Below are positions 2-64,000 of a stretch of 64,000 bases of DNA, in pieces. This DNA is from Escherichia phage JLBYU32: sequence record OK272490.1; one strand, given 5' to 3'. A program made the position numbers and the translations under genes. The notes under the pieces were generated by a model. It saw nothing but the letters and a program-made list of their open reading frames with translations, made no database searches and was not told where the DNA came from. The first letter of the stretch is position 1. Every line of letters begins with the position of its first letter.

Positions 2-2368
2 ATGCGCATGGTAAATGACCACGCAGAAGTGATTAAGAGTTCAACTTCTTTAGAGACGTCTCAAGCACAGATTACAATGACACCTGAGATGTTCAGCCTT
101 TTGAGTTCTGGTGTGTATACCTTTAAAGAAAGGGCAGTGATTCGTGAACTGTCATGTAACGCAGTAGATGCTCAGAAAGAAGCTGGAAAAGAGAACATCC
201 CGTTCCATGTGCATTTACCTACTCGTTTTGAGCCTTACTTTGAAGTTCGTGATTTTGGAACTGGATTGACTCATGATAAAGTTATGAGTTTGTATCTAAA
301 CTACGGGGCTTCTACGAAGAATGACTCTAATGACTACATTGGTGCAATGGGTATCGGCTCAAAATCACCATTTGCAATTGCTCAGTCATTCACAGTGTCT
401 AGCTATGTTGATGGTGTTGTTAATAAGTACTCTGTTTATCTTGAGAATGGTATCCCTCAAGTAACTAAGCTGACCACTAACCCAACAAAAGAACCTAATG
501 GTTTAGCTGTACGTGTGGCAGTTGCTGACCACCGTATCTCAAAGTTCTTTGAAGAAGCTGGAAATGTGTACTCATACTTCACTGTAAAACCAGAAAGTAA
601 TATTGAGTACGACGATGTATTAGCAGACATGAACGTCATTGCCCGTGAAGAAGGTGTTTATGATGCCATGATTCATAAGCAAAGCTGGCGTTCTAGTGGT
701 AACAGGACAGAGTTTAATGTGGTGATGGGTAACATTGCCTACCCTGTTAATATGGAAGCATTACTTGGTGATGATTTCTTCAAAGTATTGCCAGAATTTT
801 TCCGTAGGAGCGTAGACCTTGTAAACATCTACATGCCTATTGGTTCAGTTGCTATTGCAGCTTCTCGTGAAGCATTGCAGATGAATGATACGACAAAAAA
901 TGTTATCATCGAGGCTACCAAAAAGATAACTGAAGCAATTACAAAGGATGTTATCAAGAAAGTTAATAGCCAACCTACACTCATGGATGCTGCACAGGCT
1001 TATGCAGAGCTACGTTTGAACTCACGAGAGATGTTTAATGCTGTGTGTCCAAAGCTAGAGTGGGGAGGCATTAAGCTTGATTCTCTGGAAGAAGAATTGT
1101 TAAACATTCGTCGTGGAATTATCTACGCAGAAGACGGCTCAGTCATTTATGAACGTGACGGTAAAGGCAATATTAAGGTTGATAGGAACGGGAACAATAT
1201 CCCTAAAGTAGATTATCTTTATGACCCAGTTGCTTATGTCAAGTTCAACTCTTTAGAGAGTAAGATTCGTGCAACAGCACTTTCCTACACTCAAGAGGCA
1301 AGTATGTTCAATATCTTTGGTGCAATGCGTAAAAGCCAAATTGAACAGTTTTTGTTCGTGATTAATGACCGTCGCAATAAAAACGGTACTGAGAAGACTG
1401 TAGGCCGCAATCAGATTCTGCGTGGTGCATGTCGAGATTACGCCAATGAGTCAAGTCTGTTTCACAGATACAATGGTATTGTGTTTGTATTCTCAACTGA
1501 GAAAGAGTTAGATGATTTAATCAATCTGCATAAACTTGATAAAAGTTTGTTAAAGATTGTGAAGATGTCTGATAAGGAACACCATTATCAGCGTAAAGAA
1601 GCTGTGAGGGGTGTTGTAAAACTCTGGAAAGCTGTCCCAGCAGAAGGTGTAGCCTCCTACAAAGAGGTATCAGAAGACTTAGACACAATTGAAGAGCCTC
1701 AGCTTTACATTAAGGCGGTTGGCGACACAGTTGATGGTGAATGTTTTTGCTCATCTCCAGAAGATGTGGCTAAGTCAGTTGCTAATGTTATTGGAAAGAC
1801 AGTCTATGTTTTCCGAAAAGCAAATTGGAAAAAGATACCAGAAGACTGGATTGAAGTAGATGAGAAGCTCTTGAACGACAGCTTAACTGATGTTCATTGG
1901 ATTAACCATAACAGGTATATGACACGCATCTACATGAATGGTGTTCTTGACCTTACAAGTAGCTGGATTATTGCCAGAAACTTTACATTCAATAATAGGA
2001 AGATTTCTCGTGGTTATTGCTATTCACGGGATACAAACAAAACTATCTTCCTAGAAGGTAATGAAGAGGCTGTAGAGGCAATGTTCGGTAAAATCCAATA
2101 CGTTGCTGCACCGTTTGCATACACTTACACTGTTAGTAGATTGCAAACTTTGAAAGAATGCCTTGACAATGATACAAAGCTGTACAAGAAAATTAAGAAA
2201 GCTGGTGACCGCATGGTCATTAAGGTGACAAACTATCTTTCAAAAAGAAAACAAGAAAACTTCTTGCTTTCTCATTTAGATTGGAATAAAGTGTCACCTA
2301 TTGAAGTGAGTAAGTTTTTAGGCTTTGATGTGAAATGTGTTCCAGAAGGGACTACAATTTACGATTAA
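2..2368 (+). CDS. rIIA: rIIA-like protein (GHKL/histidine-kinase-like ATPase N-domain)
   Basis: N-terminal block FSLLSSGVYTFKERAVIRELSCNAVDA ... DFGTGL ... NDYIGAMGIGSKSPF matches T4 rIIA ATPase motifs as recalled; 788 aa; followed by rIIB-like gene. Confidence 0.85.
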   Translation: MRMVNDHAEVIKSSTSLETSQAQITMTPEMFSLLSSGVYTFKERAVIRELSCNAVDAQKEAGKENIPFHVHLPTRFEPYFEVRDFGTGLTHDKVMSLYLNYGASTKNDSNDYIGAMGIGSKSPFAIAQSFTVSSYVDGVVNKYSVYLENGIPQVTKLTTNPTKEPNGLAVRVAVADHRISKFFEEAGNVYSYFTVKPESNIEYDDVLADMNVIAREEGVYDAMIHKQSWRSSGNRTEFNVVMGNIAYPVNMEALLGDDFFKVLPEFFRRSVDLVNIYMPIGSVAIAASREALQMNDTTKNVIIEATKKITEAITKDVIKKVNSQPTLMDAAQAYAELRLNSREMFNAVCPKLEWGGIKLDSLEEELLNIRRGIIYAEDGSVIYERDGKGNIKVDRNGNNIPKVDYLYDPVAYVKFNSLESKIRATALSYTQEASMFNIFGAMRKSQIEQFLFVINDRRNKNGTEKTVGRNQILRGACRDYANESSLFHRYNGIVFVFSTEKELDDLINLHKLDKSLLKIVKMSDKEHHYQRKEAVRGVVKLWKAVPAEGVASYKEVSEDLDTIEEPQLYIKAVGDTVDGECFCSSPEDVAKSVANVIGKTVYVFRKANWKKIPEDWIEVDEKLLNDSLTDVHWINHNRYMTRIYMNGVLDLTSSWIIARNFTFNNRKISRGYCYSRDTNKTIFLEGNEEAVEAMFGKIQYVAAPFAYTYTVSRLQTLKECLDNDTKLYKKIKKAGDRMVIKVTNYLSKRKQENFLLSHLDWNKVSPIEVSKFLGFDVKCVPEGTTIYD

Positions 2369-2381
2369 AGTGTTTGACAAG

Positions 2382-2398
2382 GGGCTTTGAAGCCCCTT
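2382..2398 (+). terminator. stem-loop GGGGCTT-TGAA-GCCCC after rIIA (no clear U-tract)
   Basis: inverted repeat directly after stop codon; same GGGGCT/AGCCCC stem recurs elsewhere in window. Confidence 0.4.
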
Positions 2399-2447
2399 AG
2401 AATAGCCTTACAAAATGATTTATTAACTAACAAGAGAGAGTAATAAG

Positions 2448-3557
2448 ATGACTACTAAAACTAAAGCACAGATTGACGCAGAAATTTACAAACTGGTTAA
2501 AGAAGGTAAGCTGACTAAAACAGCTATTGCACAGAAATTTAATACTTCAACCCGTTCAGTCGGTCGTGCTGTAGAGCGTCATGAAGCAACCTTAAAAGGT
2601 AAGAAAAAGGTAGCTTCTAAACCAGCTACGAAGACTTTGAAGCAAGTTGCTAAATCAGTTAAAAAGAAAGCTGACAAGCCAGTTAAAAAGGCTGTTAAAG
2701 AGGATGTACAGAAAGCTCCGGTAAATAAACTACACGAAGCTATGCAGAAAGATGACAAGATTGAGTACATGATTACTGGTGACTCTGTAATTATGACTTA
2801 CGGTTCAGAATCTGAAATTGTTGAGTCTACTCATCCGAACTATCAAGAGATTGTAGTTCATGTTGTTAAAGGTGAGTTTAAGAAAGCTTTCGAACTGATG
2901 AACATTCGTAAGTCTATCGAAAACTTCACTCAGGGAGCTATCACAATCAAAGGTGATAAGTTATTCTACGGTGCTGTTGAGATGCGCTCTACTCTGGTTG
3001 ACCGTATTCTTCACATGATGAAGACTGGTGACAAGGGCTTTGAACGTCTGGTAATGTTCTTCGAAAAACTGATGGAAAACCCATCCAAAGATTCTGTAGA
3101 ACAACTTTGGGGCTTCGTATCTCACCTTGATGTCGAAATTGATGAGGAAGGCTACATCATTGGTTGGAAGAAAGTCTCTACTCGTGAGGGTAAGCTGGTT
3201 GATTCTCACACCTACAAAGTGCCTAATGATTTGGGTAACATTGTAGAAATGCCACGTTGGATGGTTGATAATAACCGTAACGTGACTTGCTCTCAAGGTC
3301 TTCACGTTGGTGCTTGGGATTATGTTCGTTGCTTCTCAGGTGATACAATCCTGAAGGTTCGTGTCCATCCACGAGATGTTGTATCTGTTCCGACTGATTA
3401 CAATGATATGAAGATGCGTTCATCCCGTTATGAAGTTGCAGCAATCGTTGATAATCAACGTAAAGTGCTGGAAGCATGGAATGGTAAGACTGAAGCCTTG
3501 CATGTCATTGTTGGTACTGCTGGGGAACTCATCTCTCAACGCAAACGCGAAATCTAA
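2448..3557 (+). CDS. rIIB: rIIB-like protein
   Basis: C-terminal half (LFYGAVEMRSTLVDRIL ... CSQGLHV ... KVRVHPRDVVSVPTDYNDMKMR) resembles T4 rIIB as recalled; immediately downstream of rIIA. Confidence 0.75.
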   Translation: MTTKTKAQIDAEIYKLVKEGKLTKTAIAQKFNTSTRSVGRAVERHEATLKGKKKVASKPATKTLKQVAKSVKKKADKPVKKAVKEDVQKAPVNKLHEAMQKDDKIEYMITGDSVIMTYGSESEIVESTHPNYQEIVVHVVKGEFKKAFELMNIRKSIENFTQGAITIKGDKLFYGAVEMRSTLVDRILHMMKTGDKGFERLVMFFEKLMENPSKDSVEQLWGFVSHLDVEIDEEGYIIGWKKVSTREGKLVDSHTYKVPNDLGNIVEMPRWMVDNNRNVTCSQGLHVGAWDYVRCFSGDTILKVRVHPRDVVSVPTDYNDMKMRSSRYEVAAIVDNQRKVLEAWNGKTEALHVIVGTAGELISQRKREI

Positions 3558-3597: not shown

Positions 3598-3657
3598 TTT
3601 GTATTTTGTGCAGAGTGCTGTATAATTGTTGTCACGATAAACTAAACAGGAGAACCA

Positions 3658-4206
3658 ATGAAGAAGTTGATTCTAGGTTTGTGCTTAATGTTTACAGCAC
3701 ACTTATCTTATGCAGTTGACTGCCCAGAGCTATCAATTAGCCAAAAAGTAAACATGTTAAAAGCTTACCAGTATGGTGAGAATAATATGGGTAAAGGTTG
3801 GGGTATCACTCTAGCTGCTATAGCCTTACAAGAGTCAGAGTTAGGTCTGAAGGTAGAGAATAAAAAGACACACGATTATGGTATTTTCCAGAATCACTTG
3901 AAGACTGTTGTAAAGCGTAACAAAATTAGTCCTAATGTTGCTAAAAAGAAACTCTTAAAAGACTTTGACTATGCTGCGAAGGAGACTCACAAAGAGCTTG
4001 AGTTTTGGACAAAGGTGCATGGTCAACCAAAGTCAAAGAAGACTTTACAAAAAGTTTTAGCATCATATAATGCTGGGTATTCGTACAAAATCCCTAAAGC
4101 TAAGAAATACTCTCAAGATGTCTATAACAATATGAAAGTCATCGCTCAATGTGAATTTGCAACAAACATCTCTAAGGTAAATCATGAAAAAATTAAAAAA
4201 GTCTGA
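3658..4206 (+). CDS. secreted lytic transglycosylase-like protein (SLT domain) with signal peptide
   Basis: N-terminal signal peptide MKKLILGLCLMFTAHLSYA; QESELG...YGIFQ and SYNAGYSY resemble SLT catalytic/AYNAG motifs. Confidence 0.5.
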   Translation: MKKLILGLCLMFTAHLSYAVDCPELSISQKVNMLKAYQYGENNMGKGWGITLAAIALQESELGLKVENKKTHDYGIFQNHLKTVVKRNKISPNVAKKKLLKDFDYAAKETHKELEFWTKVHGQPKSKKTLQKVLASYNAGYSYKIPKAKKYSQDVYNNMKVIAQCEFATNISKVNHEKIKKV

Positions 4207-23719: not shown

Positions 23720-23796
23720 CTCTGTTTAGCTCAGCTTGGTAGAGCGTTCCGTTTGGGGCGGTAAGGCCGGAGGTTCAAGTCCTCCAACAGAGACCA
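23720..23796 (+). tRNA. tRNA-Pro (anticodon TGG)
   Basis: hand-folded cloverleaf; 7-bp acceptor, T-arm GGAGG-TTCAAGT-CCTCC, CCA encoded. Confidence 0.7.
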
Positions 23797-23803
23797 AATT
23801 AAT

Positions 23804-23881
23804 GTTCCAGTAGACAAAACGGTAAAGTCACCACTCTTTCAAAGTGGATATTTGAGGGCTCAAATCCCTTCTGGAACGCCA
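23804..23881 (+). tRNA. tRNA-Glu (anticodon TTC), atypical T-loop CTCAAAT
   Basis: perfect acceptor and anticodon stems; loop CTTTCAA. Confidence 0.7.
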
Positions 23882-23883
23882 GT

Positions 23884-23963
23884 TTTGACAGAAGACCAAT
23901 TACAGCAAGTTTAATCTTATTCATCTGACACGAAATCGGACAAAGAAGAGATTTGGTCTGGTC
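23884..23963 (+). repeat. tRNA spacer element CAGAAGACC..ACAGCAA ... TTGGTCTGG (copy 1)
   Basis: long-range inverted repeat AGACC/GGTCT; recurs at least 4 times between tRNAs. Confidence 0.6.
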
Positions 23964-23972
23964 ATTAAGAAT

Positions 23973-24049
23973 TGCGGGTATAGAGAAAGGGCGTCTCACA
24001 TGTCTCATTAGCATGGTATCGGCAGGTTCGACTCCTGCACCCGCCTCCA
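23973..24049 (+). tRNA. tRNA-Met (anticodon CAT)
   Basis: anticodon loop CTCATTA; T-arm GCAGG-TTCGACT-CCTGC; 1-72 mismatch. Confidence 0.65.
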
Positions 24050-24050
24050 A

Positions 24051-24117
24051 TTTTGCAGAAGACCGTATGCAGCAATAAACTACTTTTTGCGGATAAAAGA
24101 AAAAACACGGTCTGGCA
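24051..24117 (+). repeat. tRNA spacer element (copy 2)
   Basis: TTTTGCAGAAGACCGTATGCAGCAA ... CACGGTCTGGC. Confidence 0.6.
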
Positions 24118-24126
24118 ATGTATTAA

Positions 24127-24203
24127 GGTTAGGAAGCACATAAGGTATGTGCGGTCGCCTGTTAAGCGAATGGCACAGGGTTCGAATCCCTGACTAACCG
24201 CCA
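24127..24203 (+). tRNA. tRNA-Asn (anticodon GTT)
   Basis: loop CTGTTAA; T-arm CAGGG-TTCGAAT-CCCTG. Confidence 0.75.
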
Positions 24204-24212
24204 AATTTAAAT

Positions 24213-24300
24213 GTGTCGTTATCCCGTAGATGGTAGCGGTGGGGACTGTAAATCCCTTGTCATTGAGACTCGGTAGGTTCGACTCCTACACGGCACACCA
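24213..24300 (+). tRNA. tRNA-Tyr (anticodon GTA), long variable arm
   Basis: 88 nt; loop CTGTAAA; T-arm GTAGG-TTCGACT-CCTAC. Confidence 0.7.
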
Positions 24301-24306
24301 AATAAA

Positions 24307-24384
24307 GGTTATGTAGTTTAATCTGGTTAAAATACTCCCCTGTCACGGGAGATGATGAGGGTTCAAATCCCTTCGTAACCGCCA
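24307..24384 (+). tRNA. tRNA-Asp (anticodon GTC)
   Basis: anticodon stem CTCCC/GGGAG, loop CTGTCAC. Confidence 0.75.
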
Positions 24385-24442
24385 ATTTTGAGAGGGCTAT
24401 TTAGCCCCTCCCTTAAAGAGTTCTTACGAGTATTCTTTAAAG

Positions 24443-24514
24443 GAGCAGAAGACCAAATACAGCAAATACGTATGATATTTTCAAGCCAATTTAATTTTGA
24501 AAAAATTTAAAACT
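24443..24514 (+). repeat. tRNA spacer element (copy 3)
   Basis: GCAGAAGACCAAATACAGCAA ... AACTTGGTCTGGC. Confidence 0.6.
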
Positions 24515-24520
24515 TGGTCT

Positions 24521-24668
24521 GGCTCAACAATTTTACAGAAGACCGTTTACAGCAAAACTTAAACAATCTATTTCTCGGTAAAGAAAAGGAGAAGGTTCGA
24601 TTCCTTCACTCGACAGATGTCGAGTTGGTGTAATGGTAGCACTTAAGATGATAAACAACGGTCTGGTA
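24521..24668 (+). repeat. tRNA spacer element (copy 4) containing a tRNA-like fragment
   Basis: TTTTACAGAAGACCGTTTACAGCAA ... AACGGTCTGG. Confidence 0.6.
24585..24640 (+). pseudogene. tRNA-like fragment: T-arm then acceptor-like hairpin then D-arm-like segment (degenerate or permuted tRNA?)
   Basis: GAAGG-TTCGATT-CCTTC then ACTCGAC-AGAT-GTCGAGT then TGGTGTAATGGTAGCAC; no canonical cloverleaf in normal order. Confidence 0.25.
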
Positions 24669-24817
24669 ATCATCTTTGCAGTAGCTTATGTGGCTAATTA
24701 TGTCGTCCCATGAGTGCCGATGAATTTCCTTAGCATGATTCTAGATTAGCTTAATAGGAAATGACTCTACAGACCCTTTAGCAAGGTCTGCGTAGGTTAC
24801 TGCAAAGATGATTTAAT

Positions 24818-24892
24818 GGAAGTGTAGCAGAATGGTGATGCGGCAGACTTTTAATCTGACAGGCGATGGGTTCGAATCCCTCCACTTCTACC
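24818..24892 (+). tRNA. tRNA-Lys (anticodon TTT)
   Basis: loop CTTTTAA; paralog of tRNA at 26051 (shared T-arm GATGGGTTCRAWTCCCTCC). Confidence 0.65.
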
Positions 24893-24897
24893 AAAAT

Positions 24898-24974
24898 GGT
24901 TCAGTCGCAGATAAGGTAATGCAGGGGTCTCATAAGCCCTATGAATGTGGGTTCGATTCCCATCTGAACCTCCA
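24898..24974 (+). tRNA. tRNA with anticodon CAT (Met, or Ile via lysidine)
   Basis: loop CTCATAA; perfect acceptor GGTTCAG/CTGAACC. Confidence 0.7.
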
Positions 24975-24976
24975 AT

Positions 24977-25051
24977 TGTGGGTTAGCATAAATGGTAATG
25001 CAAACGGCTGATAACCGTTAGAAGAGGGTTCGATACCCTCACCTACAACCA
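24977..25051 (+). tRNA. tRNA-Ile (anticodon GAT)
   Basis: anticodon stem AACGG/CCGTT, loop CTGATAA. Confidence 0.75.
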
Positions 25052-25066
25052 ATTTCAATAAAGTTG

Positions 25067-25095
25067 TTGACATTTAGATGTGACCACTTTATAGT
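25067..25095 (+). promoter_or_regulatory. sigma70-like promoter TTGACA-17-TATAGT inside tRNA cluster
   Basis: consensus boxes; followed by ~200 nt of structured non-tRNA sequence before next tRNA. Confidence 0.6.
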
Positions 25096-25299
25096 AACCT
25101 TAGTTTTCGTTGCGTAGCGTCTATTTTGCAAATTTAAAATAAATGCAAACGACAATGTTTTTCTGGCAGTAGCTTGATAGGCTAAACACCAGTGAGGTCT
25201 TCCAATCCCTCATCAAAGAATTTGGCGTACTAGCCCACGGTATGATTAATAAAGTGGGCATCTTTAAGGGCTTTCTAAGAGAGTCTTTAAAGATAATTA

Positions 25300-25381
25300 C
25301 GGGGCGTATCTCAGCTGTCTTCTAAACAGCCGTTAACCGAGTAAGTGGAGTATGCGGGTTCGAGTCCTGCCGCCTCGACCA
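25300..25381 (+). tRNA. atypical tRNA-like gene (possible anticodon TCT, Arg); fold uncertain
   Basis: good acceptor and T-arm (GCGGG-TTCGAGT-CCTGC) but non-canonical D region; hairpin GCTGT-CTTCTAA-ACAGC. Confidence 0.35.
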
Positions 25382-25524
25382 ATTTAGTTAGCAGATTACT
25401 TAGACGACCTAAGCGGGTCTTCCTGTAGGGAGGTGGTCTGTATCTCATGTTTTCCAGAACATGTAAATAATCTGAGAAGGGGCTTTACAGTGTTGAGATA
25501 ATACGGTAAGCTTCGAATTATAGT

Positions 25525-25606
25525 ATGGGACGATGTTAAGACTCTAAGGCATGAGCAACGGCTTCCAACACCGTTTCAAAGGGGTTCAACTCCTCCGTCC
25601 CATGCC
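25525..25606 (+). tRNA. atypical tRNA, possibly tRNA-Trp (anticodon CCA) with oversized D region
   Basis: perfect 7-bp acceptor ATGGGAC/GTCCCAT, T-loop TTCAACT; candidate anticodon loop TTCCAAC. Confidence 0.4.
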
Positions 25607-25620
25607 AAAGTCTTATTAGG

Positions 25621-25708
25621 GGTAGGTAGCGGCTAATGGTAGCCAAACTGTCTTGAAAACAGTTGCCACTGTAGAGATACGGTGAGGGTTCGACTCCTTT
25701 ACTTACCG
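25621..25708 (+). tRNA. tRNA-Ser (anticodon TGA), long variable arm
   Basis: 88 nt; anticodon stem ACTGT/ACAGT loop CTTGAAA; CCA not encoded. Confidence 0.7.
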
Positions 25709-25855
25709 CCTAATAAGATTTAAAGCCAAGCTTCATTCGGATGTTGCTTTGGTATACCGCGTGTATTGTTGTACACACAGATAAAACACCTAGTAGGTGT
25801 CACGGAGAAGAGATAATATCAAGCTCTCCAAAGGTTCTAGTCACCGGATTAAACA

Positions 25856-25880
25856 AGACTATGCAAAGACCTTTTTAGGT
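25856..25880 (+). terminator. hairpin + T-tract inside tRNA cluster spacer
   Basis: AAGACC-TTTTT-AGGTCTT followed by TTTTAGAG. Confidence 0.4.
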
Positions 25881-25966
25881 CTTTTTAGAGGGCTTCTAAG
25901 GTTATTAGTCGCTTGTTGTGGAACCTTGTTGCTCAGGTTCTTAGAAGTTCTCTAAAAAGATTTAAT

Positions 25967-26043
25967 GCACCTATAGCCCAACTGGTGGAGGCAGCAGACT
26001 TAGAATCTGCTCAGTGTGAGTTCGAATCTCTCTAGGTGTACCA
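25967..26043 (+). tRNA. tRNA with anticodon TAG (Leu by anticodon) but class I (short variable loop) shape
   Basis: anticodon stem GCAGA/TCTGC loop CTTAGAA; 77 nt; discriminator A. Confidence 0.6.
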
Positions 26044-26050
26044 AATTAAT

Positions 26051-26126
26051 GCAGGTGTAGCAAAATGGTTATGCGGCTGACTCTTAATCAGTAAGACGAT
26101 GGGTTCAATTCCCTCCACCTGTACCA
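26051..26126 (+). tRNA. tRNA-Lys (anticodon CTT)
   Basis: loop CTCTTAA; paralog of tRNA-Lys(TTT) at 24818. Confidence 0.65.
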
Positions 26127-26132
26127 AACATT

Positions 26133-26208
26133 GGGGTCATAGTTTATATGGTTAAAATTCGAGTTTTGCAAACTTGGGAACTGAGTTCAATTCTCAGTGA
26201 CTCCACCA
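26133..26208 (+). tRNA. tRNA-Ala (anticodon TGC)
   Basis: G3:U70 wobble pair in acceptor stem; loop TTTGCAA; T-arm CTGAG-TTCAATT-CTCAG. Confidence 0.8.
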
Positions 26209-26214
26209 ATTAGT

Positions 26215-26289
26215 GCATCCATAGTTTAAACGGGAAAATTACAGTCTTCCAAACTGAGGTTGAGGGTTCGATTCCCTCTGGATGCTCCA
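26215..26289 (+). tRNA. tRNA-Gly (anticodon TCC)
   Basis: perfect acceptor GCATCCA/TGGATGC; loop CTTCCAA. Confidence 0.75.
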
Positions 26290-26296
26290 AATTAAT

Positions 26297-26372
26297 GCTC
26301 CTATCGTATAATTGGCTATTACGGTTGCCTTGTAAGCAACTTATCAGGGTTCGAATCCTTGTGGGAGCACCA
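26297..26372 (+). tRNA. tRNA-Thr (anticodon TGT)
   Basis: anticodon stem GTTGC/GCAAC loop CTTGTAA. Confidence 0.8.
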
Positions 26373-26467
26373 ATTCAGAGGTCAAGTGAAAGACCGCTTT
26401 GAGTCAACTGAAGACCGTAACAAATTCCACGGAGTTGAGTTAGCGGCACAACTCCAGACCTCTTTCA

Positions 26468-26543
26468 TACTCGCTTAGTTTATATGGTAAAACATCACCC
26501 TTACAAGATGAAGAAAAAGGTTCAAGTCCTTTAGTGAGTACCA
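26468..26543 (+). tRNA. tRNA-Val (anticodon TAC)
   Basis: T-arm AAAGG-TTCAAGT-CCTTT; loop CTTACAA. Confidence 0.65.
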
Positions 26544-26544
26544 T

Positions 26545-26622
26545 GTTCCAGTATCCCAATTGGCAGAGGATGCAAGCTCAAACCTTGTACTAGTGACGGT
26601 TCGAATCCGTCTTGGAACACCA
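26545..26622 (+). tRNA. tRNA with anticodon CAA (Leu by anticodon), class I shape
   Basis: T-arm GACGG-TTCGAAT-CCGTC; loop CTCAAAC; discriminator A. Confidence 0.6.
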
Positions 26623-26627
26623 ATTTT

Positions 26628-26703
26628 GCAGGATTAGTTCAAATGGAAAGAGCAACAGTCTACGAAGCTGTTAATAGGGGTTCGAATCCCTTATCCTGCG
26701 CCA
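26628..26703 (+). tRNA. tRNA-Arg (anticodon ACG)
   Basis: perfect acceptor GCAGGAT/ATCCTGC; loop CTACGAA. Confidence 0.8.
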
Positions 26704-26722
26704 ATTTAAAGAGGCTATTTAG

Positions 26723-27280
26723 ATGAGATATTTGAAGTATGCTTCATGGATTTTCTTAGCTTTGTTAGAGCCATTTGCAGCAATCTTAGCAGTTATCTTA
26801 GCACCTTTTGTAGTTCCATTCTACAGTGAGAAGAAAGGACACTTACCTTTCGGGTTCAGATGGATGGAGACATATGACAACCCAATTGATGGTGATGAAG
26901 GTCACGTTAAAAGATGGGCTAATATTAGATGGATTGGTAAACTAGGTGTCTACATGCAAAGAGTCGGATGGCTCTGGAGAAACAAAGCTTATAACTTCTC
27001 TTACCATGTATTAGGAAGAGATGTAAAAGATGTTACTAAGTGGAAAGGTAATATCAACGTAAGTTCTGACCCCGAAGATAATCAGACAGGTTATCTCCTA
27101 ATGTGGAACAGTAATGCTTGGGGATTATTCGCTTTTATCCCATCAATTAAAATCTTTGGTAAACAATTTTACTGGAGAATTTATATTGGATGGAAACTAA
27201 AAAGTGTTGTCCCAGAAGAAAGAGCATTCTCAAGGGAAAGAGTTATGTTGGCATTCTTTATTCATCCACTGAGAAAGTAA
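26723..27280 (+). CDS. hypothetical membrane-anchored, Trp-rich protein embedded in tRNA cluster
   Basis: AAAGAGG RBS 8 nt upstream of ATG; N-terminal hydrophobic segment. Confidence 0.55.
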   Translation: MRYLKYASWIFLALLEPFAAILAVILAPFVVPFYSEKKGHLPFGFRWMETYDNPIDGDEGHVKRWANIRWIGKLGVYMQRVGWLWRNKAYNFSYHVLGRDVKDVTKWKGNINVSSDPEDNQTGYLLMWNSNAWGLFAFIPSIKIFGKQFYWRIYIGWKLKSVVPEERAFSRERVMLAFFIHPLRK

Positions 27281-27288
27281 AGATTTAA

Positions 27289-27364
27289 AGGGGATTAGTT
27301 TACAAGGTTAAAACCTCGGTCTTTGAAATCGAAGAAGTTGGTTCAATTCCAACATCCCCCGCCA
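27289..27364 (+). tRNA. tRNA-Gln (anticodon TTG)
   Basis: T-arm GTTGG-TTCAATT-CCAAC; loop CTTTGAA. Confidence 0.7.
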
Positions 27365-27366
27365 AT

Positions 27367-27445
27367 GCTCCATTACTCCAATTGGCAGAGAGGCCAGACT
27401 TAAAATCTGTGTTATGTATCGGTTCGAATCCGATATGGAGTACCA
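27367..27445 (+). tRNA. tRNA with anticodon TAA (Leu by anticodon), class I-like shape
   Basis: T-arm ATCGG-TTCGAAT-CCGAT; loop CTTAAAA; discriminator A. Confidence 0.6.
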
Positions 27446-27450
27446 AATTT

Positions 27451-27526
27451 AGCGGTATAGCATAACTGGCAATGCAGCAGCCTCTGAAGCTGTCCTATTA
27501 AGGTTCAAATCCTTATGCCGCTGCCA
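27451..27526 (+). tRNA. tRNA-Gln (anticodon CTG)
   Basis: T-arm TAAGG-TTCAAAT-CCTTA; loop CTCTGAA. Confidence 0.65.
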
Positions 27527-27557
27527 CTTCTAAGGATTCTTGCGAGAGTCCTTAAAT

Positions 27558-27633
27558 GTGGCCTTATCATAAATGGTAATGACCCATGCTGTGAACATGG
27601 TCTATACGGGTTCAAATCCCGTAGGTCACCCCA
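27558..27633 (+). tRNA. tRNA-His (anticodon GTG)
   Basis: anticodon stem CCATG/CATGG loop CTGTGAA; discriminator C. Confidence 0.75.
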
Positions 27634-27639
27634 ATTTAT

Positions 27640-27715
27640 AGTCCAAGTAGCTTATATGGTTAAAGCGCGTGTCTGAAAAACATGAGAAGAGGGTTCGAAT
27701 CCCACTGGACTACCA
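27640..27715 (+). tRNA. tRNA-Phe (anticodon GAA)
   Basis: loop CTGAAAA; T-loop TTCGAAT; acceptor pairing slightly ambiguous. Confidence 0.65.
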
Positions 27716-27731
27716 ATTTCAAAGGTGCTTA

Positions 27732-28466
27732 ATGAAAGAGATGACAGAACAAGGTAAGGAGATTTTTAATCTCTTAAAAACCGGTAGAGGGTTTTCTAAT
27801 CCCCTTATTACTGGTGCAGCAGTTCTCGGTGGAACCGTAGCTGCCTCTACATCACTTGTAAGTTCTATTAGCTCTGTAACAGACCCTACAATGAAGGAGA
27901 AACTTGTTGCTGCTGGACTTACAACAGTCCTTCTAAACAGCTTTACAACAAGCCTTACAAGCACTACAGCGACTACTAAGACCTTAACAGACTATGGTCA
28001 AAAGTCTATTGATGAGTTTTCATCACGTATGCAGGTAGCAAAGGGGTATTCCAATGTTATGGGTGCAGCAGGGGAACAAGTTGGCTGTACACCGTTTAGT
28101 GGTATTATGGGCGTTGCTACAGAATATGGTCAAAAAGCTATTGACACAATTAACAGTGCACTAGATGACGTTAATGATGTATTAAGTGACTTACAAGATG
28201 CTATTGATAAGGGTCTTGATACTGTTTCTGATTTAGCTAATCAGGCTGTTAGCAAGATTAATGAAGGTATCTCGAAGATTACAGCTTATGCAGATGAAGT
28301 TGTGCAGATGATTGAAGAAGAAGCTGCCCTTATTGCAGAGTACCTTAAAACGAATATCAATGGGTTCTTAGCAGGTATCTTACCAGACTGGTTTGATGAT
28401 GCCTGTAAAACTGGTGTAATTGATACTATTGCAACACCAGAAATGAAGAGCGCATTACAGAAGTAA
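27732..28466 (+). CDS. hypothetical Ser/Thr/Ala-rich protein embedded in tRNA cluster
   Basis: start moved to ATG 27732 (track start 27669 is an alternative start inside tRNA-Phe); ends 1 nt before tRNA-Ser. Confidence 0.5.
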   Translation: MKEMTEQGKEIFNLLKTGRGFSNPLITGAAVLGGTVAASTSLVSSISSVTDPTMKEKLVAAGLTTVLLNSFTTSLTSTTATTKTLTDYGQKSIDEFSSRMQVAKGYSNVMGAAGEQVGCTPFSGIMGVATEYGQKAIDTINSALDDVNDVLSDLQDAIDKGLDTVSDLANQAVSKINEGISKITAYADEVVQMIEEEAALIAEYLKTNINGFLAGILPDWFDDACKTGVIDTIATPEMKSALQK

Positions 28467-28467
28467 T

Positions 28468-28560
28468 GGAAGATTAACCCTAAAAGGTAAGGGAGCAGTT
28501 TGCTAAACTGCCAGTAGCTGAGAAATCGGTGTACCAGTTCAAGTCTGGTATCTTCCTCCA
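28468..28560 (+). tRNA. tRNA-Ser (anticodon GCT), long variable arm
   Basis: 93 nt; perfect acceptor GGAAGAT/ATCTTCC; anticodon stem GCAGT/ACTGC loop TTGCTAA. Confidence 0.75.
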
Positions 28561-28564
28561 ATTT

Positions 28565-28640
28565 GAATCCGTGACAGAAATGGCTATGTGCCTGTCTGCA
28601 AAACAGGTTTATAAGGGTTCGAGTCCCTTCGGATTCTCCA
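28565..28640 (+). tRNA. tRNA-Cys (anticodon GCA)
   Basis: perfect acceptor GAATCCG/CGGATTC; anticodon stem CCTGT/ACAGG loop CTGCAAA. Confidence 0.8.
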
Positions 28641-58030: not shown

Positions 58031-58219
58031 TCAACAACTTTCTAATAAAGTTTTATGAAGATTTTGCTTAACAACCCGCCTCACATGCCTATGTTCTTTC
58101 TTAATAAAGAGTGACCTCTTCTTGATAGAGCGCCTATTCTTGTAAGTATTACTAGGATACTTATCATGAACCGGACAACAACTCCCCGGATTTGTAAACT
58201 TGATAATCTCTCTTTTCAC
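58031..58219 (-). CDS. hypothetical small basic protein
   Basis: ORF. Confidence 0.35.
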   Translation of the reverse strand: MKREIIKFTNPGSCCPVHDKYPSNTYKNRRSIKKRSLFIKKEHRHVRRVVKQNLHKTLLESC

Positions 58220-59355
58220 TATTCATAATCCCTAATAACTAGCCCGACAGGGAACTGTAAAGAACCCTTACGAGTCATCTTCTGGAACTGTACCGTTAAA
58301 GGTTTCCCGATAAACTCTTCAGGATGCTCAGCAAGATACTGTTTCTTCTCATGAGTAGTCTTCCATGAGACATCTACAAAGACGTTAGGAAGAGTCTCTA
58401 CAACGAACTTACCGTGGCCACGTTTATCAGTCTTGACACCAGTCACTTTAAACTCTTCAGTGTGCATCTTCTTGTGCTTAATCAAGAAGTATGAACGGTG
58501 ACAACACTCATAGAAGGAGTCTTCAGAGATTGAACGGTACATTGCACCTTCAAACTTAGCTTCAACCCACTTATCATGAGCTTCATCGAACTCTTCCCAA
58601 GAATTTACACGACGAGACTTAACAGGGACAACTTTACAGCCGTCTCTAAAGTCATTCAATGGTGAAGTCTCAATAATATCTCTACGCTCAGGCCACGTCT
58701 TAGTACTGTCACAGATATCGTACCAGTAAAACTTGAGTAAGTGTCTGTCAGGATTGTCTTCATTTTTAATCATGGAGACAATATCTTCTAAGTCCCACCC
58801 ATGAGCATAAATCTCTCCATCAAATTCATCAACATCTTTGTGGAGCCTTAACATTGCCATAATGTCAGGTATTAGTTCAGTAGGGATTTTGTAAACAGTA
58901 TTCTCACGAGAATATGCCGTGAAACTAACTGAATCATCACCTCTTGAAATTCTACAACGTACACCATCAAGTTTTGGTTGAGCATCAGCAGGGAACTTCA
59001 GATACTTTGCATGACTAACCTTTGCAGCATCATGAGCAAGCTGTACACCTACCTTCTCAGTATTCTGTGCAGATTCTTTTGTGTAAGCATACCCTTTACG
59101 GTCAACCTGCTTTTTATACTTAGCAGCAACTTCAAAGAGAGCTTGCTGTTCAGCGTTACGCTCATTCTTTTTACCAATGTTCTTAGGTTCTGCTGTATAC
59201 TCTTCAAACATCATCTTGCCATTTTCTTTACCGTAGGTTGTAATAACTTTGTCGCCTACAGCAACACATGACCAGACATTGAAAGAGCCATCTTTATTTT
59301 GTTTGTATAGAATTGTCATTTTATTCCTCTGAGTGATACCAAGTATTGCAAGCAT
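58219..59355 (-). CDS. ATP-dependent DNA ligase
   Basis: adenylation motif I KLDGVRC (KxDGxR); 378 aa, T7-ligase-like size. Confidence 0.75.
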   Translation of the reverse strand: MLAILGITQRNKMTILYKQNKDGSFNVWSCVAVGDKVITTYGKENGKMMFEEYTAEPKNIGKKNERNAEQQALFEVAAKYKKQVDRKGYAYTKESAQNTEKVGVQLAHDAAKVSHAKYLKFPADAQPKLDGVRCRISRGDDSVSFTAYSRENTVYKIPTELIPDIMAMLRLHKDVDEFDGEIYAHGWDLEDIVSMIKNEDNPDRHLLKFYWYDICDSTKTWPERRDIIETSPLNDFRDGCKVVPVKSRRVNSWEEFDEAHDKWVEAKFEGAMYRSISEDSFYECCHRSYFLIKHKKMHTEEFKVTGVKTDKRGHGKFVVETLPNVFVDVSWKTTHEKKQYLAEHPEEFIGKPLTVQFQKMTRKGSLQFPVGLVIRDYE

Positions 59356-60115: not shown

Positions 60116-60349
60116 TCATATCAACTCCAGAATATCAATACGTTCACCCTTAAGAACTCCAGTACGGTCTCTTGCAATCTTGCCGTCAACAATAAGGATA
60201 TGTGCAGCCCTTAAAGAGTCACCATTAAAACCTTTTACGAACTTGCTAGGCATCACTACAATGGACATCTCCTGAATCAACTCTGGAGTATAGCAATTAT
60301 CGTGAAGTTGCTGAATAACGTCTGCAAGTGTCATTTTTGATGTCTCCAA
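60116..60349 (-). CDS. hypothetical protein
   Basis: ORF. Confidence 0.45.
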   Translation of the reverse strand: METSKMTLADVIQQLHDNCYTPELIQEMSIVVMPSKFVKGFNGDSLRAAHILIVDGKIARDRTGVLKGERIDILELI

Positions 60350-60540
60350 TACTCAATGTCAATAAGTTCTTGTGCAATGCTTTTCAGATTACCTTTCAAG
60401 AAAACCTTCTCAGAACCTGAAAGAGATGAATTGTCAATTAACCTGTTCATTCTCTCAAACAACTTCTGCTTACGGTTCTTAATAGTTTCCTTTGAAGCAC
60501 CTTTCATCATCGCTGCATGGGTTCTTCCACGGTGACTCAT
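60331..60540 (-). CDS. hypothetical small basic protein
   Basis: ORF. Confidence 0.4.
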   Translation of the reverse strand: MSHRGRTHAAMMKGASKETIKNRKQKLFERMNRLIDNSSLSGSEKVFLKGNLKSIAQELIDIEYWRHQK

Positions 60541-60601
60541 AAGCCCTCCTATACAAGATGTAGTATAAGGTACTCTTCCCTGAGCACCTTGTCAATACTA
60601 A

Positions 60602-61165
60602 TTAGTGTACCTCATACCAGCTTTTACCAACCTTACCAGTACCTGTAACAAGTGTTTCTTTCTTAAGACCTAAGTTCTTAGAAGCTTGTCCATAATACCA
60701 GTCAGTAACTGCTTTCACTTCTGCCGTCATACTTTCTGGACATTCCCAACTCGTCTCGTCGTGATAGGAGCACAATAAACGAGCACCTATAGCTGGCTTG
60801 CGACCGTTCAACTTCATCAAACCTTCGTCAATCATACGACGGCAAGCAAGGTTAATTGCTTCATTCTGAACCTGCGCCTCACTACCCATAAGTGTGTAAT
60901 TCAATAACTTATGTGGAGATTTACACCATAACCACGCTCCAGCGACCTGAATGTACCCACCCTTAGCGATTGCAGCACTCTTGCCGAAAACCTCTTCTAA
61001 TGCCTTCTTAGTGGCCTTAAAATCGGCTTCTAAGTTATCAAGTAGCTTCTTAATCTTTGGTAGACGCATATAGTAGGTCTGCTTAGTCAATGCACCTTCT
61101 TCTGTAGAAGCTGCCTTAATGGTTTTGGCAAACTTCTCATCACCTGCACCGAACAATACATCTGG
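60602..61165 (-). CDS. DNA polymerase (family A), C-terminal segment (second half of motif B and motif C)
   Basis: VLFGAGDEKFAKTI matches T7-like motif B second half; YHDE motif C; in-frame stop at 61166-61168 bounds the segment. Confidence 0.7.
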   Translation of the reverse strand, partial: PDVLFGAGDEKFAKTIKAASTEEGALTKQTYYMRLPKIKKLLDNLEADFKATKKALEEVFGKSAAIAKGGYIQVAGAWLWCKSPHKLLNYTLMGSEAQVQNEAINLACRRMIDEGLMKLNGRKPAIGARLLCSYHDETSWECPESMTAEVKAVTDWYYGQASKNLGLKKETLVTGTGKVGKSWYEVH

Positions 61166-61965
61166 TCAATACACTCGCAAGGTGTACCAGTTCTCTTATG
61201 AACTTCTCCGCATTTCTACGGAGTGTCGGACTATATCACGTAGTAGTAATACTACCGTTGCACTTGGGAATGGTCATTAGCTTACCACCCTACTCTACTC
61301 AGTTCATACATTAAGTATGCTTTTCGATAGTCTCTGAACGTTTCTCTGTTAGGAACTCTAAAATACTATTGTTTACTAAGGTATGCAATTGCTCTCTGCA
61401 TATTATCTACACTGTCTGAGAACAAGCCAAGACCTCTGTTACAGTTGTGGCACAACATCCCTCTCACCTTACCTGTTTTGTGGTCATGGTCAACAACAAG
61501 TTTAGCTTTATGTCTTGAGCCATTCATGATGAAACCTTCACCGCCACAGATTTGGCACTTATGGCCACATTTACTTAACAACTCTTCAACCTCTTCTCTT
61601 TCTAGGCCGTAAGTCCTTAAGTAGTAGTTCTTTACCCTTCCCTTTTCTCCACATGCAGAACTGCAATATGTCTGTCTTGCTGTTCTAGGTGTGAATTGGT
61701 TATTGCAGCTTGGACATATCTTTTCTATGACACGGTTTGCTGCTCTCCTGTCTACTTCAAGAACGCAGTTTCTGCAACGTTTTTGATTGTACTGGTATGG
61801 CTTAAACTCTTCGCCACATCTGGAACAAACTCTCTCTTTATAACCTACCATTGTCTCTCTCCCATTTCTACTATAGGAGTCCTAACAGAGACTTCGCTGC
61901 TGATTACCATATCTTTTAAGACTTAGGCTTCCAGCAATTCACAACGTTTTACATGCGCCACTGAC
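61160..61965 (-). mobile_element. intervening sequence in DNA polymerase gene (putative group I intron; boundaries approximate) carrying HNH endonuclease
   Basis: splits motif B between ...AKNGIYA and VLFGAGDEK...; contains HNH ORF on same strand. Confidence 0.55.
61366..61851 (-). CDS. HNH homing endonuclease
   Basis: multiple CxxC pairs and DHDHKTGKVRGMLCHNCNRGLG HNH motif. Confidence 0.8.
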   Translation of the reverse strand: MVGYKERVCSRCGEEFKPYQYNQKRCRNCVLEVDRRAANRVIEKICPSCNNQFTPRTARQTYCSSACGEKGRVKNYYLRTYGLEREEVEELLSKCGHKCQICGGEGFIMNGSRHKAKLVVDHDHKTGKVRGMLCHNCNRGLGLFSDSVDNMQRAIAYLSKQ

Positions 61966-64000
61966 GCATAGATACCATTCTTAGCCTTCTTACGGCCTTT
62001 AGTTATCTCGTGAAGAAGTTCCTCATCCTGTGTCTCTCTACAACGGATAATATCTTCTTCTTTGTTCAATGCAAAATAGATACTGTTAAGTGTATGCGCA
62101 TCAGTACCTGTGTAGACTTCATACAAATCATTATCAGCATCGTAACGACAATATTTATCAGCCTCTGGATTTAGGTACTTATCAAGATGCTTGCAGTAGT
62201 ATCGTCCATCATCCTGTTTAGTGAACTCTACAAACTCTTTACCTTCAGTTACCGCTTTGGTGAAGTCTTTATCACCCATAAAGTTACACAGTAAAACAAG
62301 CTGTGCAGAGTTCTGGTCAACTGAAACGATATTAGTCCCTTCCTCGCAAATCCACACCTCCCTCATAGGCGCTCCATAGACAGCAGCACCAGACGGCACG
62401 TTTACAATACCATATTGTGTCATACGCCCAGTTGAAGTACCAAACACCATTGCACCAGCACTAAGGCGACCATCTGGACGAATCTGGTTCAGCCAACCTT
62501 TCTCGTCATCCTTTGAGTTCTCAATAGTTCTGCGTCGGTGCATCAAAGTATAGTACTTAGCAATCTTCTGTCCAAGTTCACCTTCAATCGTATCATAAGA
62601 TGATTCAGTAAGTTTTGGTGAAGTACGGATTAAGCAAGGCTCAAGCAAATCTGTGTACTTCTTCACAGACCAGTTATGCTCAATGTACTGGACACCTTCA
62701 TGCTCAACATAGCTCAAACCACACCGCTCAACCATTTCCTGCCATTTAGGATGCTTGGTAATCATCTTTTTGTTGTCTTTGAAACGACAAACCTTAACAG
62801 GACGACCATCTGAGTCTTTCTTGTAGTTCCAGTCATCTGGAATCCAACCAACTGATTTCAAGTAGTCTTTAACAACTGCTACCTGAGTCATACGAGAAAC
62901 TTCAAACTCAATTGGTGTATATGGTGCATCAATCAATCCTGTGTAGCGACTTGACTCAAGTTCAAAGTGGTTAACAACGTGGCTGTTATAGTACTTCACA
63001 GTTTTGACTGTTTTTACTGGCTTCCAGTCTTTGCATTTCTTACCAATCTTTGCATTCAACTCATTGCAAATTGCACGAGCATCCTTCATTGCTACAAAGC
63101 CTTCCTTGTACTCTTCACCAGTTACAGAGTTGGTTGGTGTATAGCAATTTCTCTTTTCAATGTTAAAAATCTTTGTAGTTGGCTTACCAAATGGTTTGAT
63201 TTCATAAGTCTGCATCTCACCATTACGCACCTGCTGACGATACTTCGTCTTAGGGTACTTGGTAATTCTTTTCAGTCCATCTGCATGACCAAATGCTTCA
63301 ACATACTCATTCCAAGCTTTTGCAAACTCTTCTCCAGTGACTTTACCTTTGGTCTTAATAGTTGGAGGTAGATGTGGTTCAACCTCTGAAGCAAGCTCAT
63401 TAGTCAACTTGTCAAGTTCCTTTACATGGAACTCCATAAGCTCTTTATCAGCTTTCCAGCCATTAATAGCTTGTTGACTCATCCAGAAAGACGTCTCTTT
63501 AGCTCGCATGTAGGTTTCATAAGTGTCTATGCCACACTTCTTAAGCTTGAGATACTCGTTATCAAGTGCCCGTTTAGTTTTGGCGTTAATACGGATATCT
63601 TCTACAACACGAGTGAAGATTTCTGCATTCCACACACCCCAATGTTCAATCTCTGGTTTACGAACACCAACACGAGCACCCCATGCAGCCAAACCATGAG
63701 CACCTTTATAACCCTTTGGAGTTGGTCTATCCATCCACTGAACACGAGACTGGATAAGAGAATCCTGAAAGAAATTACTCCACGGTTTACACTTTGGATT
63801 ATCAAAGTTCCATAAATCAGGTGCAATGTGATTGAAAACCCACCAGTCATAACCGAGACCATTATGGATGCAAAGACGTTTTGCCTTTAACGCAAACTCA
63901 ATGCCTTCACGTAAGCCACCCTTAATGTACTTGGTATACTTGTGACCGAGGATAGGCTCATCTGTAAAGACCCATACAGGCGGCTCTTCATCGTCAGATT
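61923..64000 (-). CDS. DNA polymerase (family A), N-terminal segment; partial, runs off window end
   Basis: DQNSAQL (motif A-like) and ...RKKAKNGIYA (first half of motif B); frame open from 63734 to 64000. Confidence 0.7.
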   Translation of the reverse strand, partial: SDDEEPPVWVFTDEPILGHKYTKYIKGGLREGIEFALKAKRLCIHNGLGYDWWVFNHIAPDLWNFDNPKCKPWSNFFQDSLIQSRVQWMDRPTPKGYKGAHGLAAWGARVGVRKPEIEHWGVWNAEIFTRVVEDIRINAKTKRALDNEYLKLKKCGIDTYETYMRAKETSFWMSQQAINGWKADKELMEFHVKELDKLTNELASEVEPHLPPTIKTKGKVTGEEFAKAWNEYVEAFGHADGLKRITKYPKTKYRQQVRNGEMQTYEIKPFGKPTTKIFNIEKRNCYTPTNSVTGEEYKEGFVAMKDARAICNELNAKIGKKCKDWKPVKTVKTVKYYNSHVVNHFELESSRYTGLIDAPYTPIEFEVSRMTQVAVVKDYLKSVGWIPDDWNYKKDSDGRPVKVCRFKDNKKMITKHPKWQEMVERCGLSYVEHEGVQYIEHNWSVKKYTDLLEPCLIRTSPKLTESSYDTIEGELGQKIAKYYTLMHRRRTIENSKDDEKGWLNQIRPDGRLSAGAMVFGTSTGRMTQYGIVNVPSGAAVYGAPMREVWICEEGTNIVSVDQNSAQLVLLCNFMGDKDFTKAVTEGKEFVEFTKQDDGRYYCKHLDKYLNPEADKYCRYDADNDLYEVYTGTDAHTLNSIYFALNKEEDIIRCRETQDEELLHEITKGRKKAKNGIYASVAHVKRCELLEA

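Follow-up and report, generated by a model that had tools for sequence, protein, structure and literature searches.

At one end of a 64,000-nucleotide (nt) stretch of Escherichia phage JLBYU32 (sequence record OK272490.1; hereafter the window), the gene for a family A DNA polymerase is interrupted, in the middle of its catalytic motif B, by an 805-nt element that contains an endonuclease gene. Salmonella phage FSL SP-107 and Escherichia phage Barry share 97% identity with the region, which matches 259 phage records, nearly all of them Felixounavirus (Felix O1-like myoviruses). The window is therefore DNA of a Felix O1-like myovirus. We argue below that the polymerase gene is very likely interrupted by a splicing group I intron that carries a homing endonuclease gene. 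The features at the locus, beginning with the three open reading frames (ORFs), are as follows.

63734 to 61923, minus strand: upstream ORF, N-terminal part of the polymerase (ORF list; frame open to the window edge).
61851 to 61366, minus strand: middle ORF, endonuclease, 161 amino acids (ORF list).
61156 to 60602, minus strand: downstream ORF, C-terminal part of the polymerase (ORF list).
61964 to 64000, minus strand: exon 1 of the family A DNA polymerase (ORF list, Pfam DNA_pol_A), its 5′ part cut off by the window edge.
61159 to 61963, minus strand: predicted group I intron, 805 nt (partial Rfam matches, ORF-less homologues, drawn structure).
61366 to 61851, minus strand: predicted homing endonuclease gene, 161 codons and a stop, in the loop of helix P6a (Pfam PF02945).
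60602 to 61158, minus strand: exon 2 of the polymerase (ORF list, Pfam positions 217-380, alignment with T7).

Both outer ORFs carry the Pfam domain DNA_pol_A (profile positions 93-185 in the upstream ORF and 217-380 in the downstream ORF, out of 381). A preliminary description of this DNA, made from its letters alone, had placed the three ORFs on the same strand, had given the interruption as approximately 0.8 kilobases with non-coding flanks of approximately 110 and 210 nt, and had remarked that the polymerase frame stays open beyond the methionine at 63734 to the window edge. All of this holds, and the strand can be specified: both exons, the endonuclease ORF and the intron lie on the minus strand. 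The interruption between the exons measures 805 nt (61963-61159) and includes 112 nt of non-coding sequence on the 5′ side of the transcript (61963-61852) and 207 nt on the other side (61365-61159), while positions 61926-63998 are free of stops and give a translation of 691 amino acids. Judging from the annotations of Barry and GEC_vB_B1, the polymerase would start approximately 106 nt outside the window, past position 64000, and annotated relatives suggest a spliced product of approximately 899 amino acids, the same as in phage HY02. Exon 2 encodes the C-terminal 184 codons and the stop (60604-60602), which include the remainder of motif B, and motif C.

Excising exactly 805 nt restores the reading frame. 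Exon 1 ends ...AAT GGT ATC TAT GCG T and exon 2 starts TA TTG TTC GGT; joined, they encode ...RKKAKNGIYALLFGAGDEK..., which is colinear with motif B of T7 and of the intron-less phages HY02 and Felix O1. The latter two read ...AAT GGC ATC TAC GCC CTG TTA TTT GGA... (NGIYALLFG), and the peptide is identical to that of the window after removal of the 805 nt, with zero residues added or missing. At the nucleotide level, the predicted ligated exons carry ATCTATGCGTTATTGTTCGG, and the corresponding uninterrupted polymerase sequence in HY02 and Felix O1 is AAGAATGGCATCTACGCCCTGTTATTTGGAGCCGGAGA. The codon at the junction is a leucine codon split after its first base (T + TA), giving ...GIYA-L-LFGAG. 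The preliminary description had joined GIYA to VLFGAG; it had the length right and no residue missing, and was mistaken in the residue at the junction, which is leucine and not valine. Its broader claim, that joining the two ORFs rebuilds motif B, is borne out, both by the intron-less homologues with which it had proposed a comparison (HY02 and Felix O1 confirm the removal of exactly 805 nt) and by a gap-free alignment of the joined protein with residues 517-536 of T7 gp5 (TRDNAKTFIYGFLYGAGDEK). The two ORFs thus align to contiguous polymerase sequence, the outcome on which that description had made its interpretation depend.

This alignment pairs the split leucine codon, in which the insertion follows the first base, with F528 of T7 gp5, and puts the site between the equivalents of G527 and F528. 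We take R518, K522, Y526 and Y530 of T7 to be the equivalents of R754, K758, F762 and Y766 in E. coli Pol I. With these equivalences, the alignment places the site at 763/764 in E. coli Pol I numbering, in the O-helix of motif B. The exact boundaries agree with the rules of group I splicing: the last base of exon 1 is U (61964) and the last base of the intron is G (61159). Among the choices that obey both rules, only this one yields the IYALLFG of the intron-less alleles. Every intron-containing allele has the junction TATGCGT/TATTG (the slash marks the insertion site), and the intron-less alleles have the synonymous TACGCCC/TGTTA. This contrast shows that the exon bases at the junction vary with the presence of the intron exactly at the positions that pair in helices P1 and P10 of the structure described next.

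The intron starts CAGUGGCGCAUG and ends ...ACCAGAUG, its terminal G (omega-G) being position 61159. The window sequence accommodates a complete set of group I helices (P1, P3 to P9.2, including P7.1 and P7.2, and P10), with standard pairs throughout; there is no P2. The elements, in the order of the transcript, are as follows.

61952 to 61970, minus strand: P1, exon UAUGCGU (61970-61964) paired with the guide GCGCAUG (61958-61952).
61946-61940, minus strand: 5′ strand of P3 (Rfam alignment, pair table).
61936-61898, minus strand: P4-P5-P5a domain (Rfam alignment, pair table).
61897-61896, minus strand: 5′ strand of P6 (Rfam alignment, pair table).
61343 to 61891, minus strand: extended P6a, a 12-base pair (bp) stem of 61891-61880 with 61354-61343, whose terminal loop holds the endonuclease gene.
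61163 to 61339, minus strand: 3′ half of the ribozyme (Rfam, drawn structure, pair table), which comprises the elements that follow.
61339-61338, minus strand: 3′ strand of P6.
61332-61328 (5′ strand) and 61233-61229 (3′ strand), minus strand: P7, GACUA/UAGUC.
61319-61305, minus strand: P7.1, CAUAC/GUAUG, invariant.
61290-61266, minus strand: P7.2, GGG-U-GGU/ACC-AUU-CCC, invariant.
61262-61256, minus strand: 3′ strand of P3.
61255-61240, minus strand: P8, with one pair that is U-A, U·G or C-G among relatives.
61223-61206, minus strand: P9 with a GAAA loop.
61203-61190, minus strand: P9.1.
61189-61163, minus strand: P9.2.

In P1, U61964 and G61958 form a U·G pair, and the 5′ splice site directly follows U61964. 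P10 consists of 5 bp between intron nt 1-5 (61963-61959, CAGUG) and exon 2 positions +1 to +5 (61158-61154, UAUUG). We compared pairing across 15 intron copies from the genus, and all seven P1 pairs and all five P10 pairs are standard in every one of them. The presence of P7.1 and P7.2 and the lack of P2 place the modelled structure in subgroup IA; the further assignment to IA2, over the other IA subgroups, is suggested by the resemblance to phage introns reported in PMC3428280.

Dozens of independent genomes share the arrangement of a split polymerase with an ORF in between, which is thus no product of chance. The family assignment draws much of its strength from copies of the intron that have no ORF. 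These score well above the 50-bit gathering threshold of the Rfam group I model RF00028 (BPS17L1: 63.8 bits; REP9: 61.7 bits; S19cd: 65.3 bits; E-values 2e-15 to 3e-14). They are 268 nt (BPS17L1, REP9) or 310 nt (S19cd) long. Apart from the P6a region, at most two of their positions deviate from the window sequence. In place of the P6a stem they have a short hairpin, whose first pair has changed from U-A to C-G, a compensatory change. The covariance-model search proposed in the preliminary description is thus positive for the ORF-less homologues, and its suggestion of a group I intron at the catalytic motif B gains support from the covariance model, the structure, the restored frame, sequence conservation and the presence/absence polymorphism described below.

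Several points weigh against this interpretation. The window itself scores only 24.3 bits (61975-61820) and 15.4 bits (61414-61206) against RF00028, both below the threshold, because the ORF splits the covariance model into two matches. Free-energy z-scores are -1.4 and -0.7, that is, the sequence folds no better than shuffled sequence. Folding energy is a poor discriminator for group I-type RNA, and the unconstrained centroid fold reproduces most of the hand-drawn helices. Support from covariation is limited: the ribozyme is nearly invariant, and across the 15 copies there are only two doubly changed pairs (U-A/C-G in P6a; U-A/U·G/C-G in P8), together with two changes from G·U to G-C. Two single substitutions disrupt a pair in a few of the copies, and the leftover variation lies mostly in loops L5, L7.1 and L8 and in the P7.2 bulge. 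Finally, a scan of IMG/VR for the ligated exons returned one chance match, in an unrelated contig and with nothing relevant to splicing, and a scan of metagenome contigs from the Joint Genome Institute (JGI) returned no match; either spliced RNA or a precise loss of the intron might have shown up in these scans, and both are uninformative.

The reading of the interruption as an intein is excluded. The frame of exon 1 meets a stop 13 codons into the insertion, and the endonuclease has its own start codon, with the Shine-Dalgarno-like sequence GGGAGAGAG 5 nt before its ATG. We also note a 38-amino acid ORF at 61198-61314 on the plus strand, antisense to the 3′ half of the ribozyme and overlapping P7.1 to P9. 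Its counterparts are annotated as “hypothetical protein” (GEC_vB_B1 gp112, LinBro CDS0046, JLBYU28_68), and it is most likely a spurious gene call.

We are interested in whether selection has maintained the parts of this locus. Between the window and LinBro, synonymous divergence (dS) is 0.7-3.0 in the polymerase exons and 2.6 in the endonuclease gene, and only four of 295 ribozyme positions differ. By this comparison, the ribozyme is under purifying selection and appears to change approximately 100-fold more slowly than silent sites. Between the window and GEC_vB_B1, the exons have a non-synonymous divergence (dN) of 0.009-0.022 and a dS of 0.34-0.42; judged from these values, the exons too are under purifying selection. 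Neither a dead relic nor a permanently split gene is easily reconciled with the combination of a conserved ribozyme and constrained exons.

In a true split gene the interruption would never be removed, and two fragments, one ending ...GIYASVAHVKRCELLEA and the other starting at the TTG at 61156, would be translated separately and assemble into an enzyme. The GenBank records of most relatives are annotated in this way, with two “DNA polymerase” coding sequences (CDSs) and usually an “endonuclease” between them, and the scans of IMG/VR and JGI contigs gave no spliced RNA. However, the break would fall in the middle of the O-helix, between the equivalents of T7 Y526 and Y530. Exon 2 has no ATG, its sole in-frame start is the TTG, which lacks a Shine-Dalgarno sequence, and scans for a promoter or terminator that would allow its independent expression found no signal above chance. 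Moreover, a split gene leaves unexplained why the interruption is a complete ribozyme of such conservation, unless splicing is needed, and P1 and P10 require precisely the bases that the exons have at the junction. We therefore consider a split gene very improbable and return to the intron and the gene that it contains.

The product of the middle ORF matches the Pfam family Endonuclease_7 (PF02945; 8.4e-20) and PHROG 307, “endonuclease VII” (5e-43), and its core aligns to the restriction endonuclease Hpy99I (2e-7) and to T4 endonuclease VII. The C-terminal core has the arrangement C99xxC102, D121-H-D-H124, R130 and C134xxC137-N138. The N-terminal half contains the cysteine pairs C9/C12, C26/C29 and C46/C49, plus C63/C67; these pairs probably form zinc ribbons for DNA binding. 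The ORF had been described as an HNH endonuclease. The DHDH...CxxCN motif behind that description is indeed present, but the protein is not a classical HNH enzyme (PF01844 type), since the Pfam search of the ORF finds Endonuclease_7 only and no HNH. Endonuclease VII-type proteins lack the central asparagine of HNH, and the pattern CX2-4C...DHDH...R...CX2C-N defines the “DHHRN” family, established around F-CphI (Fang et al. 2018, PMC6083498). By these motifs, the ORF is predicted to encode an Endonuclease VII-type (“DHHRN”) homing endonuclease, a sister of HNH that is related to it only within the His-Me finger superfamily.

The endonuclease gene has an intact frame in which all catalytic residues are kept. 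Its dN/dS of approximately 0.03, obtained with the copies of GEC_vB_B1 and Barry, argues that the gene is maintained by selection. Compared with the Barry copy, at 3650-4132 of the Barry locus, it has 37 synonymous and seven non-synonymous differences (dS 0.55), in contrast to a dS of 0.07 in the flanking exons and zero differences in the two ribozyme halves. The endonuclease gene therefore has a history different from that of its surroundings, and the pattern suggests that recombination within the intron replaced the endonuclease part. The window copy belongs to the FSL SP-107 sub-lineage. In Felixounavirus, the gene may move or recombine as a cassette independent of the surrounding ribozyme.

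These data also bear on whether the intron has decayed here, that is, whether the ribozyme or the endonuclease is inactive, the polymerase being a pseudogene or the endonuclease a passenger relic, and the phage coping in some other way. Such decay has precedents, given that VpaE1, Mushroom and S19cd have decayed endonuclease genes. For the window, we find it extremely improbable: its ribozyme is identical to that of Barry and differs so little from ORF-less copies that score above the Rfam threshold, its endonuclease gene has both an intact frame and a low dN/dS, and its exons are constrained.

The distribution of the intron in the genus shows signs of mobility. Among the records of a phage collection, approximately 253 have the polymerase exons, approximately 96 the intron core, and approximately 42 a close homologue of the endonuclease. 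Introns with an endonuclease gene are 801-805 nt long. VpaE1 has a 780-nt intron with a decayed endonuclease gene (209-669 of its locus) that is annotated as two overlapping ORFs. S19cd and Mushroom have introns of 310 and 311 nt that keep just the last bases of the ORF; these are deletion derivatives, and the deletion apparently occurred between short CTAA repeats. Minimal introns are 267 or 268 nt long, and intron-less alleles also occur. Between them, these alleles (endonuclease-plus, frameshifted, deleted, minimal and intron-less) represent all the stages that a homing cycle should produce, and such presence/absence polymorphism is typical of homing. In addition, approximately 80 nt of exon 2 beside the intron are identical between the window and REP9, JLBYU28 and S19cd, phages that are 75-85% identical otherwise, while identity farther out is 53-85% per 40-nt bin. 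The identical tract suggests co-conversion and is the one indirect sign of cleavage of intron-less alleles and of intron transfer.

A second endonuclease gene occurs near this locus in some relatives. A free-standing HNH homing endonuclease gene lies directly after the polymerase stop in Felix O1 (ORF95), HY02 (HY02_093), GEC_vB_B1 (gp110c), BPS17L1 (BPS17L1_61), REP9 and JLBYU28. The window (60331-60602), Barry, JH2 and LinBro lack it at this position. Across the dozen loci compared, its presence is independent of intron status.

We propose the following mechanism. The polymerase gene would be transcribed as one pre-mRNA that includes the 805-nt IA-type ribozyme, which would fold into P1 to P9.2. 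An external guanosine would attack directly after U61964, at the U·G pair of P1; P10 would position exon 2; and the free 3′-OH of exon 1 would attack after the terminal G (61159). The exons would then be ligated as ...TAT GCG TTA TTG TTC..., encoding a continuous polymerase of approximately 899 amino acids. We infer that splicing is autocatalytic and efficient. In a mixed infection, the endonuclease would introduce a cut or a nick close to the insertion site in the polymerase allele that lacks the intron, and repair from the intron-containing allele would copy the intron together with neighboring exon sequence (homing). This step supposes an enzyme that is active and targets the intron-less allele, and we hold present-day homing activity with less confidence than the splicing intron itself.

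Splicing might instead depend on a helper, for instance a host factor, concurrent translation or the product of the intron ORF in the role of a maturase, and the endonuclease might no longer drive mobility. There are phage group I introns that require translation or proteins in vivo; Sandegren and Sjoberg reportedly found that T4 introns need translation of the pre-mRNA. With no P2, a short P1 and the modest folding z-scores, the fold of the present intron may be marginal. On the other hand, ORF-less copies are common in viable phages, which argues that a maturase encoded in cis is not required, and related phage IA2 polymerase introns self-splice in vitro (PMC3428280). We consider dependence on a helper unlikely and retain the self-splicing intron as our interpretation.

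Two features of the window lie away from the polymerase gene. A cluster of 23 tRNA genes is found at 23720-28637 on the plus strand (Rfam RF00005); 22 tRNAs are given for Felix O1 in its genome paper. A DNA ligase ORF (58219-59355, minus strand, 378 amino acids) is intact in the window and is represented by two overlapping CDSs in GEC_vB_B1; the split may stem from a frameshift or from faulty sequencing in that record.

Bioinformatic work has already recorded the element in Felix O1-like phages. It is an ordinary mobile element of a well-known class, and it leaves the understanding of group I introns unchanged. Fang et al. (2018, PMC6083498) describe proteins with the Endonuclease VII motif from JH2, EC6, FSL SP-010 and 2 JES-2013 as intron-encoded and list them in their supplement. 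The 2019 announcement of phage Meda reports an intron without an HNH gene in the DNA polymerase gene (PMC6486253); the Meda CDS is deposited as a join, and its span minus 268 nt is 2700 nt. No introns were found in the Felix O1 genome paper, in keeping with the uninterrupted polymerase site of that phage. Our search of the literature on the element found bioinformatic mentions and no splicing or homing experiment. For annotation, the consequence is that the deposited Felix O1-like genomes in which this locus is split into two polymerase genes should carry one joined polymerase CDS and an intron feature. The well-sampled natural series of alleles also lends itself to work on the homing cycle, in phages with a use in the biocontrol of Salmonella and E. 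coli.

The closest known systems are the sister introns of the genus. The introns of FSL SP-010, FSL SP-012, FSL SP-107, EC6 and JH2, which contain the endonuclease, and that of Meda, which is ORF-less, occupy the insertion site seen in the window and share its ribozyme, from which they differ at 0-13 positions over approximately 295 nt. The sister endonucleases belong to the same family as that of the window (82-99% amino acid identity), and nothing essential is different. Two matches of the intron core found by blastn outside the genus appear to be different introns with nothing but the conserved core in common, and we reject them as copies of this one. One is in the N4-like Shigella phage Moonfish (1966-2903), beside an HNH gene and between CDSs annotated as RNA polymerase; the other is in the crAss-like cr3_1 (2063-3069), where a DNA polymerase CDS lies on either side of a homing endonuclease gene and of the match, in an unrelated peptide context. 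In neither is an intron annotated. In LUZ24, the third polymerase fragment has only 94 amino acids, and its site is therefore probably different from that of the window.

Beyond Felixounavirus, the endonuclease is most closely related to that of a T7-like (Berlin-like) Yersinia phage, with 49% identity over residues 43-159. The intron of phage Berlin also interrupts motif B of a family A polymerase, encodes an enzyme of the same endonuclease family, has a U·G pair at its 5′ splice site and a terminal G, and shares with the window intron the 14-nt element GUUCAUAAGAGAAC. In contrast, it is inserted 11 nt upstream, after nt 2 of the Phe524 codon; it is 680 nt long, and its ORF ends 142 nt before the 3′ splice site, so that less ribozyme follows. 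The ribozymes are otherwise not alignable, and the Rfam score of the Berlin intron is 26 bits. The upstream site and the non-alignable ribozyme rule out that the two are the same intron or occupy the same site. The Felix O1-type and Berlin-type introns thus carry related Endonuclease VII-type enzymes at sites 11 nt apart that flank a conserved ATCTACG. It is tempting to hypothesize that motif B is the shared target of one endonuclease lineage that was paired independently with two unrelated ribozymes, the endonuclease also moving or recombining as a cassette; we offer this tentatively, as a possibility that we consider rather doubtful. If true, it would be a natural example of the model attributed to Bonocora and Shub, in which introns and endonucleases are said to evolve separately toward the same conserved sequence and then unite.

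F-CphI resembles the window enzyme in having CxxC...DHDH...R...CxxC-N at its C-terminus. It is free-standing beside an intron-containing psbA, whereas the gene in the window is encoded inside the intron.

Among characterized systems, the introns of PhiI and W31 (I-TslI), Pf-WMP3 (I-PfoP3I) and SPO1, SP82 and Bastille (I-HmuI, I-HmuII, I-BasI) are similar in being IA2 introns at conserved sites of phage family A polymerases, with the endonuclease ORF in P6a; the intron of Pf-WMP3 likewise has no P2 (PMC3428280). They differ from the window element in three respects. Their splicing and DNA nicking have been demonstrated, while the activities of the window element are predicted. Their enzymes are classical HNH proteins, in contrast to the predicted Endonuclease VII/DHHRN enzyme described here. 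The published polymerase insertion sites, in E. coli numbering, are 674 (SPO1, SP82, Bastille, Pf-WMP3), 676 (phiL7) and 881 (PhiI, W31) (PMC3428280), and the O-helix site at Pol I 763/764 adds to this set.

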